A DNA stretch of 64,000 bases from Escherichia phage vB_EcoM_Skers, in sequence record MW748999.1; one strand, 5' to 3'. Shown here piece by piece: positions 1 to 6,363 of the stretch. The translations under genes and the position numbers were made by a program. The notes below the pieces were generated by a model. It was given only the letters and a program-made list of their open reading frames with translations. It was not told where the DNA came from and made no database searches. How positions within the stretch are numbered: position 1 is the first letter of the stretch; every line of letters starts with the position of its first letter.

Positions 1-137
1 TTCAACGGTAACATTATTAGCCAGATCCACATCGTCTAAAGTCACCGTAACGCGTCGAGATGGATATGCTACCTGTTCTACTTCAACATGTGCACTTTCG
101 CAAGTAACCTTCATATCAATCATAATTAATTCCTCTA

Positions 138-1139
138 TTAGTAATGGCTAAAACCTTCGGTTACATCTTCAACCACATAGTAACGATGACAGCGCATTTT
201 GGCATTCGCATAATCTTTCGGGATACTTACAACGTGACGCGGATCAACTTTGCATTTAATGATTCGGCCTCGCCCACCGCCATAGTGCGGAATATAGTGT
301 TTCGCTGCAACGTGGAGGCCATTAGAGCAAGTACGATCATCATCTGGGTCCACGTCTTTACGCTTCATTTTAACCGTTCGCCCTGGGCTATTATCAAACG
401 TATGCGTAAAGAAATCTTTATAATCAACATCAACACGTTTCCATGCATAGAAACAACCGTCTTCCCCGATCTCAATGTCGTTGTGCTCTAAGAAGTCAAA
501 CAGACGATCTACGGCCTTACGGCTAGGGTTTTTCTTGCACTTCTCAAAGAAGTTCAGATAGTGCGTATATGGCTTATTCTCTTTAATAGACTCCACAACT
601 CGACGAGTCAGATTATTATCAAGAACAATATTATGATAATACACAATACCATTTTCGATACGGAAAGCGCCGTGATAATATACTTCAACCGCTTTCTTAA
701 TGTCAATCAGCGTAATTGCTTTAATGAAATCATTCTGCTTAACTGCTTCCAGTGCTTCATTAAAGTTAACATGTGATGGATCAGCAGTATAAACAATGTC
801 ACCACATGTAATAGTAATAAACTTAGTTGAGGCTATGGCTACGATTTTTGAGGAAGTAGTCACGGGCTTTTTTGCGCGTTCACCGCCTTTTCCTTTACTG
901 GTTTTACGGCGTGCTTTACGTTTTTCTAGTGCCTTGCGACCTTCCGCTACTGCGTCTTTCTGAATCAGTAATACACGGGAGGCAGTACGACGAGATACCC
1001 CAAATGCTGCCGCAAGTGCTTCGCGGGTAGTAAACTTACCTTCGCCCCACTGTTTAGCCAGTTTGATTTGTTTTTCAGAATCCAGGCATTGAACGTTACG
1101 GTCAGAGACGGTGATTTTTGCTTTAGTCATAGTATTCAT
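138..1139 (-). CDS. rIIB: RIIB protein (membrane-associated rapid-lysis / Rex-exclusion protein B); true start probably the 4th codon (MTKAK, ~1130)
   Basis: C-terminal half matches the conserved RIIB signature as I recall it from T4 (RLFDFL..DIEI.EDG.FYAWK..TFDNSPG..VKM..SIP.DY.NAKMR..VVEDVTE); HTH-like N-terminus; lies directly downstream of rIIA. Confidence 0.8.
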   Translation of the reverse strand: MNTMTKAKITVSDRNVQCLDSEKQIKLAKQWGEGKFTTREALAAAFGVSRRTASRVLLIQKDAVAEGRKALEKRKARRKTSKGKGGERAKKPVTTSSKIVAIASTKFITITCGDIVYTADPSHVNFNEALEAVKQNDFIKAITLIDIKKAVEVYYHGAFRIENGIVYYHNIVLDNNLTRRVVESIKENKPYTHYLNFFEKCKKNPSRKAVDRLFDFLEHNDIEIGEDGCFYAWKRVDVDYKDFFTHTFDNSPGRTVKMKRKDVDPDDDRTCSNGLHVAAKHYIPHYGGGRGRIIKCKVDPRHVVSIPKDYANAKMRCHRYYVVEDVTEGFSHY

Positions 1140-1192
1140 TCCTCTATTAGTTGGGCGACTATCGCCGCCCGATTCACATCATTATACCAGAA

Positions 1193-1324
1193 TTATTTTG
1201 CTTCGACAACCTTGCGGATTGTGCGGTCTGATACATTATAGATTCGTGCCAGTTCGCCTTTAGTCAAGCCGCGAGCGTATTGTTTACGGATGGTTTCTTT
1301 CTGGATAGCGGTCAGTTTAGTCAT
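1193..1324 (-). CDS. small helix-turn-helix protein (43 aa) between rIIA and rIIB
   Basis: ORF MTKLTAIQKETIRKQYARGLTKGELARIYNVSDRTIRKVVEAK with strong SD (AAGAGGTGA) 7 nt upstream; not in six-frame track (<60 aa). Confidence 0.45.
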   Translation of the reverse strand: MTKLTAIQKETIRKQYARGLTKGELARIYNVSDRTIRKVVEAK

Positions 1325-1335
1325 AATATCACCTC

Positions 1336-3444
1336 TTAAAATTTAACATTCTTAACCAGTTTCATAAAGTCTTGTGCGCGTTTGTCGTTATGCAGAATAC
1401 GATACCAGTTATCTACAATATCATACAGTAACGGGCTATTCTCTTTAAACTTCGCACAAACTGCTTTAATTCGTTCGTTTGCTGCCGTGAATTTTTCATC
1501 ACAAATCTTTTTAGTTTCTTCGTCCATAATCCAACGAGTATGAAGGAGTAACTTGGAAACCTCTTTATTATAATGACGACCGTACAGTCTGTCAATAAAT
1601 TCTGGAACACAGCGTTCTAGTTCATCGTCATGAAACAACATAGTGATCACACCCAGATATTCGCCATACCCCAGATGATTGGTCTTAACCTTCTTAGCCA
1701 GACCAGCCAGCTTACCGCAAACAAATTCTAGCGCACATTCCAATTGTTCGTCAACGAGATATTTTTGTGTCTCGTTTCGAGTAATAATATACTTTGTTAC
1801 CCCGAAGTAGTCAAGCGCCGTGTGTAATGTATTTTCACTATGGATCGATTTACGACTACGGCTTTCGAATGCATCACCTACGCGGAACATGTGCAAGCCT
1901 GATAACTCGCGAATCTCTGCCGCTTTCATGTGATGGCTGGTTTTATGCCAATTGTCACCAATCTTTTCCATAATATACACGTTAGGCAGCTTGGGAGTAG
2001 CTTCACGTTGTGTACGCTCGGTCTTTTCCGGTTTAACTGCTTTAGCACGCAGATCATCGGCCTCAGACACCTTAATCACGGTCATTTCAGAATCATCATA
2101 ATACTGTTTGATGTACTCGAAAGTCTCCATATGTTTTTCGTTGCGCTGACGGAACACAAGTACCTTTTTATTGATGCCGTATTCCTGGACCATACCGTTA
2201 AGAGTCAGTGCACGCAGTTTCGGTTTATCGGTATCATCAATAAGACACGTAATATCTTCTTTATGCATCCATACAAAATGCGTAATGTTGTATTGACTGC
2301 TAACGAAAGCAGGGCGCAATTTGCTGATCGTGTGTCGATGATGATACAGAGTATACACTTGACCTTCTACGTCATTAGGCGAATCTTTACCCGCATTCAC
2401 AAACTTATTATAGATTGCTACCGGATCGTCCCATTGTCCGATCTTACCCATCTTGCTAATAATATTGCGTTGAGTCGATGAATACTCGCTCATAAATTGC
2501 GCAAGTTTACGCTCTGTTTTAATGTTGGCGATCTTTTCTTTAACCTTTTCCAACATCATTTCATTGATTTCTGCAATGCGTTTTTCGATGTTCGCTTTAG
2601 TCTCAATTGACAAGTGAACTTCTTCACGCGATGGCATCAGGTCCAGATCACCCAACTCAAAATTAATGTAAATGGTCTGGTGCTGGCGGTTTACAGCTTC
2701 TAACCATGTTCCGCGAACATATTCATACGGGATCGGATACTGGATCTTACCCATGATTGCATATACTACATAGGAATCGTTATCACGCCCATTACAAACA
2801 TAATAATTATCAAAGCTAGGGAAATAATTAATTTCGATTGCATTGATATTAGGTTTGTGTTCCCCAAAATGACGAAGTACAAATTGTGCTTCTCGATGCC
2901 ATGTTTGAATGTCTTTTTCTTTCACCGGAATAGTGATTTTCAGACCATTGTCTTCATAGGTCGGTTCGTCGAAAATCTGCACCATTTTCGGCATAGAGTT
3001 TTGCACAAATGCAGTAAAGCCATAAGCGCGACCATTGTAGTAGTTTACGATTGTAAAGGTGTCGGTATAGCTATAAGCAGACTTCGCACCCAAACCAAAA
3101 GACCCGATATAGTCATTAGTCTGGTCTTTTGTTGATTCAAAGTAAACCGTAAACAGTTGTTCTAATTCTTTCTTAGACGGAATACCAGTACCATAATCAC
3201 GCACAGAAAAATACGGTTCGATTGCAGTCGGTAAATGAATATCAAACGGACGATCTAAGGTTCCGGCTTCTTTGTGAGTGTCGGTAGCATTGCACGAATA
3301 CTCACGGACGCAAGCGCGTTCACAATATTGATAAGTGTTCTTAGAAAGCACCATAAAAGCCTTGCTACTTGCTTTCAGTGAAAAATCAACCGCACCGCTC
3401 AAGTCACTGCCAAATACTTCTTCATTATCAATATGCATTTTCAT
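1336..3444 (-). CDS. rIIA: RIIA protein (GHKL/histidine-kinase-like ATPase fold)
   Basis: 702 aa; N-terminal GHKL-type ATPase-like region (DYGTGI, GSFGLGAKSAY); size and position upstream of rIIB as in T4; GAGGA SD before ATG at 3444. Confidence 0.8.
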   Translation of the reverse strand: MKMHIDNEEVFGSDLSGAVDFSLKASSKAFMVLSKNTYQYCERACVREYSCNATDTHKEAGTLDRPFDIHLPTAIEPYFSVRDYGTGIPSKKELEQLFTVYFESTKDQTNDYIGSFGLGAKSAYSYTDTFTIVNYYNGRAYGFTAFVQNSMPKMVQIFDEPTYEDNGLKITIPVKEKDIQTWHREAQFVLRHFGEHKPNINAIEINYFPSFDNYYVCNGRDNDSYVVYAIMGKIQYPIPYEYVRGTWLEAVNRQHQTIYINFELGDLDLMPSREEVHLSIETKANIEKRIAEINEMMLEKVKEKIANIKTERKLAQFMSEYSSTQRNIISKMGKIGQWDDPVAIYNKFVNAGKDSPNDVEGQVYTLYHHRHTISKLRPAFVSSQYNITHFVWMHKEDITCLIDDTDKPKLRALTLNGMVQEYGINKKVLVFRQRNEKHMETFEYIKQYYDDSEMTVIKVSEADDLRAKAVKPEKTERTQREATPKLPNVYIMEKIGDNWHKTSHHMKAAEIRELSGLHMFRVGDAFESRSRKSIHSENTLHTALDYFGVTKYIITRNETQKYLVDEQLECALEFVCGKLAGLAKKVKTNHLGYGEYLGVITMLFHDDELERCVPEFIDRLYGRHYNKEVSKLLLHTRWIMDEETKKICDEKFTAANERIKAVCAKFKENSPLLYDIVDNWYRILHNDKRAQDFMKLVKNVKF

Positions 3445-3458
3445 AATATAATCCTCAC

Positions 3459-3716
3459 TTAATTAAAATCTTCTTTGTCCATCTCTGCGTAAATTACATC
3501 CCACGCCCATAAATCAATAAACGCATTATATGTCACGGTGCAATCGTTGTCAATCACTTCTTTCGCATATTTCTTGATGTTTTCGTAGGAAACTTGCGGA
3601 TCAATTTTGTGTTTACGAAGATGCGCATATTCATACCTCAAACACTCCATAAACAGGTCCATCGATTTCTTTTCTCGATGACACTTGGCGATCATAAAAT
3701 CAAAACTTCGACTCAT
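3459..3716 (-). CDS. hypothetical protein (rIIA.1 position)
   Basis: 85-aa ORF in the minus-strand gene train; synteny only. Confidence 0.4.
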   Translation of the reverse strand: MSRSFDFMIAKCHREKKSMDLFMECLRYEYAHLRKHKIDPQVSYENIKKYAKEVIDNDCTVTYNAFIDLWAWDVIYAEMDKEDFN

Positions 3717-4539: not shown

Positions 4540-6363
4540 TTATGATTGCATCCAAATTTTGCGTTGATCTGCATCTTCACTATAGAGCAAATCGAATAGC
4601 TCTTTATAGTTTTCCGGTAACGTGATGATCTCCATTACAGGATCGTTGATCACGCGATGATAATCTGATTCTGTAAGCGATGCTAACCCTTTGATATATC
4701 GAATGTTGTAACCTTTGATATTATCTCGGTCGTTCTCGAAATCTTCTAGGTCATAATACCATCGAACATCATCACCTTTCTTTGGTTCCGCAATGATAAT
4801 AGGTGTTTTGATAAACCGGATTCGACCATCTTCGAACAATTCAGGCCAACGAGCAAAGAAAGAGATCAGACTAGGCTTAATAGACCCGATCCCGTCGGTA
4901 TCAGCGTCTGTCATAATCGCAATATTTTTGTATTGCATAACTTCCAATGCATCAACACCAAATTGCAAACCAGTGATCGCCATGATGTTAAAAATTTCAG
5001 CGTTCTTAACGATCTTTGCCTCCGGTTGTTCCCACGTTGTAAGAGTTTTGCCTCGCAACGGGAAACCGCCATGTAAATCTTGATCACGTACAGAGATCAG
5101 ATAGTTGATCGCGGAATCACCTTCCGTCAAAAACAGGGTAGTTTCTGCGTCAGTTCCAATAAGGTTAGCTTTAACGTGCTTTGCTACCTTAGCCCGTTTT
5201 GCTGCCTTTGCTGCCTTAGTCGCTGCCGCTTTATCTGCTGCCTCTTTGCGTGCCAGGACTACAGCAATAATAGGCATGATAATGTTTTCTTTCTTCGCAA
5301 TGACTTTAGCCAGCTTTTTAAAATCAAGATCAATATGACGCTTGATATCACCAGTCGGGTTAGTCAAGCGTTCTTTTGTCTGTGAATCAAAACGAAGGTT
5401 AGGCAATTCACGAACAATAAGAATACAGGTCAATCCAGATTTAACCGCAGCTTTAGTAACATCAACCTTATATTCTTTTTTGATTCGTTTTACAATCTCT
5501 TCACAAAGATCATCTGTCACATAATCAACGTGTGTTCCCCCGTTTTTGGTAAACAGACCGTTAGCAAAGGATACTGATTTAAAACCTTCTCCCTCGACCG
5601 CCGGAACGAGGGCAAGTGAAAAGTTTTTATCTTCAATGACAAACGGATCATCATTGTATAGTTTGGCATAATCCTTGAACTTGCTGGTTATCTTTTTGCC
5701 ATTAAACTTAAACGTGATCTTAGGAAAGATTACACTCAATGAATACATTCGATCGCAAATCACATCTGAAATTTCTTGTGACATGATCATACCTTCAAAA
5801 TGATCGAAATCGGGGCAGAACGTAACCTTAGTTCCTTTCAGTTTTGACGGCTTAGATGACCAGCTAATATTTTCTGCACCATTGGTACATTGAACGGTCA
5901 GTTCATTCTCTCCGTCACACGTCACACCAGTAAACCAGGACGAGAAAAATGATGTGAGCGCGCTTCCGATCCCATTCATACCCATAGTAACACGATTTGT
6001 ATCATCAAAGTTAGACCCTGCTTTAGCTCGTGTCCATGCAGCAACTGGTTGTGGAATCTGTTTCCCCTCTGGCGTCGTAACAATATGTTGCGGAATACCG
6101 CGACCATTATCTGTTACTGACACAATGTTATCTTTTATATCCACACTAATAACATTAGCGTACTCAAAATTAGTGCGGATCGCCTCGTCTACCGAGTTGT
6201 CGATGATCTCATCAATGATTTTAACCAGTCCAGGAACGTATGAAACTTTGGTCCATTTTCCAAATAGGAAACGATTGTGTGATTCATAAGTCGTTGACCC
6301 GATGTACATTGAAGGTCTCTTAAGACAGTGAGCGCGATCATCTAACAGCAAAAATTCAGACAT
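4540..6363 (-). CDS. 39: DNA topoisomerase II large subunit, unsplit (T4 gene 39 plus gene 60 equivalent in one ORF)
   Basis: 607 aa; N-terminus KRPSMYIGS..FGKW..YVPGLVKIIDEIIDNSVDEAIRT (GHKL ATPase) and C-terminal Toprim motif IAIMTDADTDG. Confidence 0.9.
   Translation of the reverse strand: MSEFLLLDDRAHCLKRPSMYIGSTTYESHNRFLFGKWTKVSYVPGLVKIIDEIIDNSVDEAIRTNFEYANVISVDIKDNIVSVTDNGRGIPQHIVTTPEGKQIPQPVAAWTRAKAGSNFDDTNRVTMGMNGIGSALTSFFSSWFTGVTCDGENELTVQCTNGAENISWSSKPSKLKGTKVTFCPDFDHFEGMIMSQEISDVICDRMYSLSVIFPKITFKFNGKKITSKFKDYAKLYNDDPFVIEDKNFSLALVPAVEGEGFKSVSFANGLFTKNGGTHVDYVTDDLCEEIVKRIKKEYKVDVTKAAVKSGLTCILIVRELPNLRFDSQTKERLTNPTGDIKRHIDLDFKKLAKVIAKKENIIMPIIAVVLARKEAADKAAATKAAKAAKRAKVAKHVKANLIGTDAETTLFLTEGDSAINYLISVRDQDLHGGFPLRGKTLTTWEQPEAKIVKNAEIFNIMAITGLQFGVDALEVMQYKNIAIMTDADTDGIGSIKPSLISFFARWPELFEDGRIRFIKTPIIIAEPKKGDDVRWYYDLEDFENDRDNIKGYNIRYIKGLASLTESDYHRVINDPVMEIITLPENYKELFDLLYSEDADQRKIWMQS

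Follow-up and report, generated by a model that had tools for sequence, protein, structure and literature searches.

[quoted passage not shown] RIIB counters RexAB and triggers CARD/gasdermin defences (PMC10312443), and Iyer et al. (2021, PMC7824862) count it among the specific transcription factors. In T4, rIIB adjoins rIIA directly, and the same is true of Jiaodavirus, of Marfavirus and of a Slopekvirus-like phage. Within the 64-kb stretch of phage DNA analysed here (the window), a 43-codon open reading frame (ORF43) instead lies between the two genes. The locus thus raises the question of whether ORF43 is a gene at all, and if so, how it is related to the RIIB protein encoded just downstream and how it came to stand at this junction.

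Gene order at the rIIA/rIIB junction

Bases 1-3500 of the window are 96-98% identical to 58 RB49-like coliphages (genus Krischvirus). PHROG matches, together with the annotation of near-identical phages, give the minus-strand order rIIA, ORF43, a 62-nt spacer and rIIB (Table 1). The translation of ORF43 is MTKLTAIQKETIRKQYARGLTKGELARIYNVSDRTIRKVVEAK, and the junction upstream of it reads TAA-GAGGTGATATT-ATG, where TAA is the stop codon of rIIA, such that ORF43 begins 11 nt past this stop. The original prediction, made from the letters of the window, had reported a small ORF with a strong Shine-Dalgarno (SD) sequence between rIIA and rIIB, and its coordinates, its sequence and the GAGGTGA motif are as described; its statement that the two genes are directly adjacent in T4 is likewise correct. 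The TAA-(GAGGTGA)-ATG layout of ORF43 matches that of canonical rIIA/rIIB junctions, as seen at the rIIB starts of Jiaodavirus and Marfavirus, and ORF43 occupies the exact place where rIIB usually starts.

ORF43 had also been called unlisted, which does not hold for the public records. It is already a CDS in RefSeq, as RB49p274 and as KFS-EC gp160, both of them named "hypothetical protein", while its UniRef name is "HTH psq-type domain-containing protein". The exact peptide is found on 515 public contigs, and it matches PHROG 15481 (unknown function) over its full length (E 3e-34, positions 1-43 of 43). On the rIIB side of the spacer, the start is ambiguous in the mechanical ORF call (1128-1145, minus strand): the AGAGGA SD runs straight into the ATG at 1139, leaving no spacer, while the ATG at 1130, which is the annotated start (MTK), has a 9-nt spacing from the SD.

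Table 1. Features of the rII locus in the window, with positions counted from its first letter.
Feature	Position	Strand	Basis and remarks
ORF43 (= RB49p274)	1193..1324	-	43 codons + TAA; ORF list, CDS annotation in relatives
rIIA, 702 aa	1336..3444	-	phrog_612, E 2e-188; annotation of relatives
rIIB, 330 aa from the annotated MTK start	138..1130	-	phrog_609, E 2e-106; annotation; AF2 pLDDT 88
Resident diverged HTH module of RIIB (residues 12-57), putative ORF43 paralogue	960..1097	-	RIIB_N profile and AF2 helices
Shine-Dalgarno GAGGTGA of ORF43, strong	1329..1335	-	Read directly; abuts the rIIA stop codon 1336..1338
Perfect sigma-70 consensus promoter, TTGACA-17-TATAAT	1567..1595	-	Inside the 3' part of rIIA
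Second perfect sigma-70 consensus, TTGACA-17-TATAAT	3525-3553	-	Upstream of rIIA
Promoter-like site, TTGTCG-17-TGnTATAAT	1181..1209	-	Overlaps the ORF43 3' end
GC-rich hairpin GGGCGGC-GAUA-GUCGCCC, without U-tract	1153..1170	-	ORF43-rIIB spacer

ORF43 is a gene under purifying selection

ORF43 is intact in all of the cultured relatives (58/58), with at least 99% protein identity in 53 of them and an identical sequence in more than 50. The layout of rIIA, small ORF and rIIB is furthermore common to four divergent metagenomic lineages (L006, L007/L008, L009 and L010). Between lineages, synonymous differences in ORF43 are near saturation (pS 0.56-0.81) while nonsynonymous differences are few (pN 0.05-0.10), giving a dN/dS of 0.04-0.08. 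When the window is compared with L007, L009 and L006, the identity of ORF43 is 73-86%, that of RIIB is 55-66% and that of RIIA is 38-44%. ORF43 is therefore a genuine gene under purifying selection and the best conserved product of the rII locus. A non-coding reading, in which the stretch would be, for example, the rIIB promoter region alone, is ruled out by the low dN/dS values.

ORF43 is separated from the RIIB core by its TAA stop, by the 62-nt spacer and by a change of frame, and the same is true of L006, L007, L009 and L010. A fusion of ORF43 to RIIB by read-through or frameshifting was also considered and is excluded, as the two frames differ and their offsets vary between lineages; in addition, the promoter-like site and the hairpin intervene. 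Having no covalent link to the RIIB core, ORF43 is to be regarded as a free-standing paralogue and not as a RIIB. In the representative protein library, we also observe a truncated or divergent 32-aa sequence (P0159) whose first 13 residues are the same as those of ORF43 (MTKLTAIQKETIR...); a frameshift or incomplete copying in a metagenome assembly may account for it.

Relationship to the RIIB N-terminal domain

The central evidence on the origin of ORF43 comes from a profile (RIIB_N) that covers residues 1-50 of RIIB proteins and from which the Krischvirus clade was left out. This profile scores ORF43 at 51.5 bits (E 3e-18), in the same range as the held-out T4 RIIB (49-55 bits), whereas the window's own RIIB reaches only 24.7 bits (residues 12-54). 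When the ORF43 family is aligned to the RIIB N-terminus alignment with hhalign, the probability is 99.2% (E 3e-19) and all 42 columns are covered. In tblastn searches of 50,697 phage genomes, the best non-self match of ORF43 is to residues 3-42 of the Jiaodavirus RIIB (52.5% identity), and the next matches are RIIB N-termini of other T4-like genera. The reverse search from the Jiaodavirus RIIB N-terminus retrieves ORF43 (35 bits) and not the Krischvirus RIIB, with HNH endonucleases following at 31-32 bits. Within Pfam, PHROG and NCBIfam, no family except ORF43's own exceeds 26 bits, and in a six-frame profile scan of the window, ORF43 and RIIB are the sole matches. Together, these comparisons support the homology of ORF43 to the N-terminal helix-turn-helix (HTH) domain of RIIB.

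The comparison with the phage's own RIIB is less telling. ORF43 and the N-terminus of this protein are ~37% identical, with Smith-Waterman p values of ~0.003 when the first 70 residues are used and ~0.02 for the whole protein, and BLASTP of ORF43 against the window's own RIIB gives no match. As far as sequence can decide, it is thus the RIIBs of other phages that are decisive, and the resident RIIB is marginal. The resemblance to the RIIB N-terminus in the original prediction accordingly stands when the RIIBs of other phages are used and is marginal for the phage's own RIIB. That both ORF43 and RIIB begin with MTK, which had been read as a sign of their relationship, is a coincidence, as the corresponding starts in relatives are MVK/MKR (L007) and MSK/MPR (L009). 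The prediction had otherwise hung on similarity to the RIIB N-terminus and on conservation of the ORF in relatives, and both are found.

Compared with the T4 RIIB N-terminal HTH (residues ~4-50; the N-terminal part of the PF26926 Phage_T4_rIIB proteins), which is a three-helix HTH like that predicted for ORF43, we observe a shared signature, L-x-x-x-Q-K-x-x-I ... G-x-T-K-x-x-L-A ... V-S-x-R-T-I-R-R-V. The two have the same slot directly after rIIA, a similar SD and start layout and an equal profile score. Unlike the T4 domain, however, ORF43 stops after 43 residues, the spacer behind it contains both the promoter-like site and the hairpin, and the RIIB encoded downstream lies in another frame and bears its own diverged HTH. 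ORF43 and the Jiaodavirus RIIB N-terminus are 48.8% identical, while the RIIB cores of the two phages are 48.9% identical, which is the pattern expected under vertical descent.

Predicted fold

The HTH character that had been proposed for the peptide is borne out by both family profiles and structure prediction. ORF43 matches the Pfam family CENP-B_N (PF04218) at 26 bits, above the gathering cutoff of 21.2, while ~17 further Pfam HTH families match below their cutoffs. The AlphaFold2 (AF2) model has three helices (residues 6-18, 22-28 and 33-41) with a mean pLDDT of 90.7, and a three-helix HTH fold is thus predicted. The nearest folds in the PDB according to Foldseek are those of IstA, Hin/gamma-delta resolvase, CENP-B and NarL-type HTHs (TM 0.7-0.83), although, for so small a domain, every E-value exceeds 0.09; sequence searches of the PDB with ORF43 and RIIB gave no informative matches. 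The best superpositions are on the HTHs of IstA, CENP-B, Hin and gamma-delta resolvase (TM 0.74-0.83), with an rmsd of 1.0-1.6 Å for the first three and of 4.3 Å for gamma-delta resolvase. ORF43 differs from these domains in that it lacks a recombinase or transposase context, and the identity to them is 17-28%. The Hin HTH is known to bind DNA as an isolated peptide of ~50 residues.

In the AF2 model of the window's RIIB, the N-terminal HTH helices (residues 18-29, 36-43 and 47-56) follow the same three-helix pattern as ORF43. They are followed by a long basic helix, a disordered linker (residues 81-92) and a well-folded core. For the core (residues 96-330, window 138-845), most of which is modelled with pLDDT above 90, Foldseek gives no neighbour in the PDB (best E ~0.5), and sequence comparison gives no homologue of solved structure.

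The free-standing and resident modules

The two modules at this junction differ in the recognition helix. That of ORF43 (VSDRTIRKVV) compares with VSVDTIRRVL in T4, while that of the resident RIIB module is FGVSRRTASRVL and is preceded by ~10 extra residues that are kept in the clade (ITxSDRNVQ). An ORF43-like module is marked by YNVSDRTIRKVV, and a resident-like one by FGVSRRTASRV. Judged by sequence, it is the free-standing ORF43, and not the resident module, that is the conservative copy resembling the canonical RIIB N-terminus.

Elsewhere, this module has clearly been multiplied. The RIIB of L006 (P0009, 459 aa, L006 4685-6064) carries three HTH modules in tandem, with a free-standing ORF43 besides, and the RIIBs of Aeromonas phage phiAS5 (P0079) and of P0102 have three tandem N-terminal HTH modules each. 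Other RIIBs have two modules or unrelated inserts at the N-terminus. Among T4-like phages, the N-terminal region of RIIB is a hotspot at which the number of modules varies. What the L006 and phiAS5 proteins share with the window is the multiplication of the HTH module at the rIIA/rIIB junction; the difference is that their extra modules are fused in one polypeptide, whereas one module of the window has a gene to itself. The L006 RIIB begins with a canonical-looking module despite the presence of ORF43, and therefore more than one duplication must be assumed, as a one-step fission does not fit some lineages.

A fused intermediate, with an ORF43-like and a resident-like module in one RIIB, was not found in IMG/VR or in the JGI metagenomes, and a search of the same collections for further ORF43 lineages returned near-identical Krischvirus loci and unrelated HTHs only. 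Two small free-standing HTHs from the representative library (P0253 and P0197) were examined as possible counterparts of ORF43 and set aside, their contexts being unrelated and non-rII. A set of metagenomic proteins of 220-720 aa (P0126-P0143) consists almost wholly of 4-10 tandem copies of the ORF43-type HTH.

Alternative origins

Which sequences come closest to ORF43 differs between the two largest collections: RIIB N-termini lead in the 50,697 phage genomes, and endonuclease HTHs lead in a library of 1.84 billion representative proteins, which we scanned by HMMER with a profile of ORF43. When the library matches are ranked by whole protein, the top is taken by proteins of 4-10 tandem HTHs. 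The top single-domain matches are the C-terminal HTHs of homing endonucleases, led by P0144 (NUMOD4+HNH_3; 48.8 bits, ~56% identity) and including P0162, P0220 and P0228 (HNH_3), P0195 (GIY-YIG) and P0214 (T5orf172), while the best RIIB N-terminus reaches 33.5 bits only. These HTHs are the closest individual sequences to ORF43, with which they have the motif KLT..Q..IR..Y..G.T..ELA..YNVS..TI in common, and the PHROG endonuclease families also give weak matches. T4-like genomes are rich in intergenic homing endonucleases. ORF43 is thus consensus-like for a broad class of HTHs, and an endonuclease origin must be considered. In this case, a homing endonuclease of the HNH_3/NUMOD4 or GIY-YIG type would once have entered the junction of rIIA and rIIB and left its HTH behind as ORF43, or the HTH would have been captured from such a gene; it would later have been domesticated, and its likeness to RIIB N-termini would reflect this shared broad class only.

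We regard such an origin as unlikely. The endonuclease matches come from the far end of a very large library, and in the phage genomes, RIIB N-termini outrank every endonuclease in both search directions. As a control, we gathered endonucleases whose nuclease domain is homologous to that of P0144, and 13/119 of them carry an ORF43-type HTH. The profile of these endonuclease HTHs, which is built from a small sample of 13 sequences, scores ORF43 at 32.5 bits, 19 below the 51.5 bits of RIIB_N. When the two profiles are set against each other, four ORF43 sequences fall on the RIIB side by +10 to +22 bits, compared with +20 to +41 bits for held-out RIIB modules and -22 to +1 for held-out HNH HTHs, although a GIY-YIG-associated HTH likewise prefers RIIB_N and the test is therefore not fully specific. 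A further profile, made from ORF43-like HTHs of the library, scores ~80 bits on ORF43 and was discarded as circular because its member sequences had been chosen by similarity to ORF43. The setting of the gene points the same way as the profiles. No nuclease domain or remnant is found beside ORF43, there is no room for one after rIIA and there is no nuclease-like ORF nearby. Moreover, ORF43 starts at a domain boundary, 11 nt past rIIA, and is N-terminal and free-standing without a nuclease, unlike the endonuclease HTHs, which are C-terminal.

A second alternative accepts the relationship to RIIB and places its source in a different phage: a second T4-like phage, such as a Tevenvirinae relative, would have supplied its rIIB 5' end by copying or recombination, and this piece would have come to lie, as ORF43, upstream of the rIIB already resident. 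Mosaic recombination is common among T4-like phages, and ORF43 is indeed nearer to the RIIB N-termini of Jiaodavirus and others (~49-52%) than to its own RIIB (~37%). However, a donor closer than ~52% was not found in any collection searched, and the split is old, being common to lineages in which RIIA identity is only 38-44%. The divergence between ORF43 and the Jiaodavirus N-terminus equals that between the cores, which fits vertical descent and not a copy from a donor phage. We therefore consider an insertion of this kind quite improbable.

Lastly, ORF43 may be read as a general small transcription factor, or a mimic of sigma region 4, that serves the early programme and whose location at rII is incidental. 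Such a protein could, for example, replace functions that are absent in MotA-less phages of the RB49 type, as RB49 is without MotA and middle promoters (PMC1524935). One public record labels ORF43 a sigma-24 family protein, and there are weak matches to Sigma70_r4 (PF04545; 21.1 bits against a gathering cutoff of 24.1), to Mor (17.6 bits) and to phrog_836, "late transcriptional activator" (24.7 bits). All three of these matches are below the family cutoffs, however, and the RIIB_N profile fits ORF43 far better than the sigma and activator families do. All of the lineages with ORF43 have it between rIIA and rIIB, and it is not known to occur in RB43 or Aeh1, other T4-like phages without MotA. 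This reading is, in our estimation, very unlikely.

Expression signals and the spacer

The perfect sigma-70 consensus inside the 3' part of rIIA (Table 1) has near-perfect counterparts 220-400 nt upstream of the ORF43 ATG in L006, L007 and L009, and it is likely the early promoter for ORF43 and rIIB. In T4, the rIIB promoters also lie inside distal rIIA. The promoter-like site at the ORF43 3' end is a possible separate promoter for rIIB: TGGTATAAT is also present in L006, and L009 has TTGACA-17-TATTAT.

In 5/5 lineages (the window, L006 at ~4641-4660, L007, L009 and L010), a GC-rich hairpin follows the stop codon of ORF43 and precedes the SD of rIIB, and in the window and L006, it is found just downstream of TGGTATAAT. 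These hairpins have stems of 7-10 bp and no U-tract, and their sequence is different in every lineage. The hairpin may serve in 5' stabilisation, in processing or in attenuation.

A proposed origin and action of ORF43

Taken together, the reading that we favour, and which we hold to be probable if by no means certain, is that ORF43 is a translated early gene encoding an HTH paralogue of the RIIB N-terminus, which arose by module duplication and subsequent fission. In the ancestor of the Krischvirus clade, the HTH module encoded at the rIIB 5' end would have been duplicated, after which rIIB was split and the first module became the separate gene ORF43. This first module would have kept both the ancestral start site after rIIA and the ancestral recognition helix (VS-x-R-TIR-K/R-V), while the second (FGVSRRTASRV) would have diverged, still attached to the RIIB core. 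In between, the spacer would have gained a stop codon, the promoter-like site, the hairpin, and a new SD and ATG for rIIB. Duplication followed by fission is favoured by the conservative character of the free copy, by its position at the usual rIIB start, by the identities expected under vertical descent and by the multiplication of modules at this junction.

The original prediction had instead proposed a partial duplication of the rIIB 5' region that became an independent small regulator. Two parts of this proposal, the homology to RIIB and the existence of an independent, selected gene, are upheld, but copying the rIIB 5' end to an upstream position explains the locus no better than duplication followed by a split, which fits at least as well.

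In terms of action, we infer that ORF43 is made early, together with rIIA and rIIB. It would bind the ligand of canonical RIIB N-termini, which by analogy with the structurally closest HTHs is probably DNA, and it would act in trans, uncoupled from the effector domain and core of RIIB. The resident RIIB module may have acquired another specificity. One early transcription unit would then yield two polypeptides, one for the ancestral N-terminal function and one for the core function. From the frameshift region of Crick et al. and the T4 deletion r1589, the RIIB N-terminus is reportedly dispensable for growth on lambda lysogens.

A bolder version of this action, which we put forward as highly speculative and think most unlikely to be correct, is that the junction is a copy-number-variable array of RIIB HTHs shaped by the arms race of phage and host. 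ORF43 would then be a soluble module acting in trans on the partner of RIIB, be it DNA, RIIA or a host immune sensor of RIIB such as CARD/NLR-gasdermin, for example as a decoy or competitor that parts the anti-RexAB activity from detectability. Our literature search found no publication on a conservative free copy or on variable HTH copy number at the rIIA/rIIB junction.

Implications for the rII locus

ORF43 and its HTH character are already present in databases, while its relation to RIIB_N is apparently undescribed, as we found no publication on ORF43 or on its tie to the RIIB N-terminal domain. A specific annotation is possible for the ~60 phage genomes in which ORF43 is labelled "hypothetical". 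As a lineage-restricted, free-standing or split form of a known domain, ORF43 is a modest evolutionary curiosity. It nonetheless suggests that the RIIB N-terminal HTH is a mobile module that can be multiplied, and that one phage genus, Krischvirus, keeps this HTH as a separate gene that is better conserved than the rest of the locus. ORF43 may thus offer a natural "domain-split" allele with which to ask what the role of the RIIB HTH is, whether it acts on DNA, on RIIA or on a host factor, and whether it does so independently of the RIIB core.
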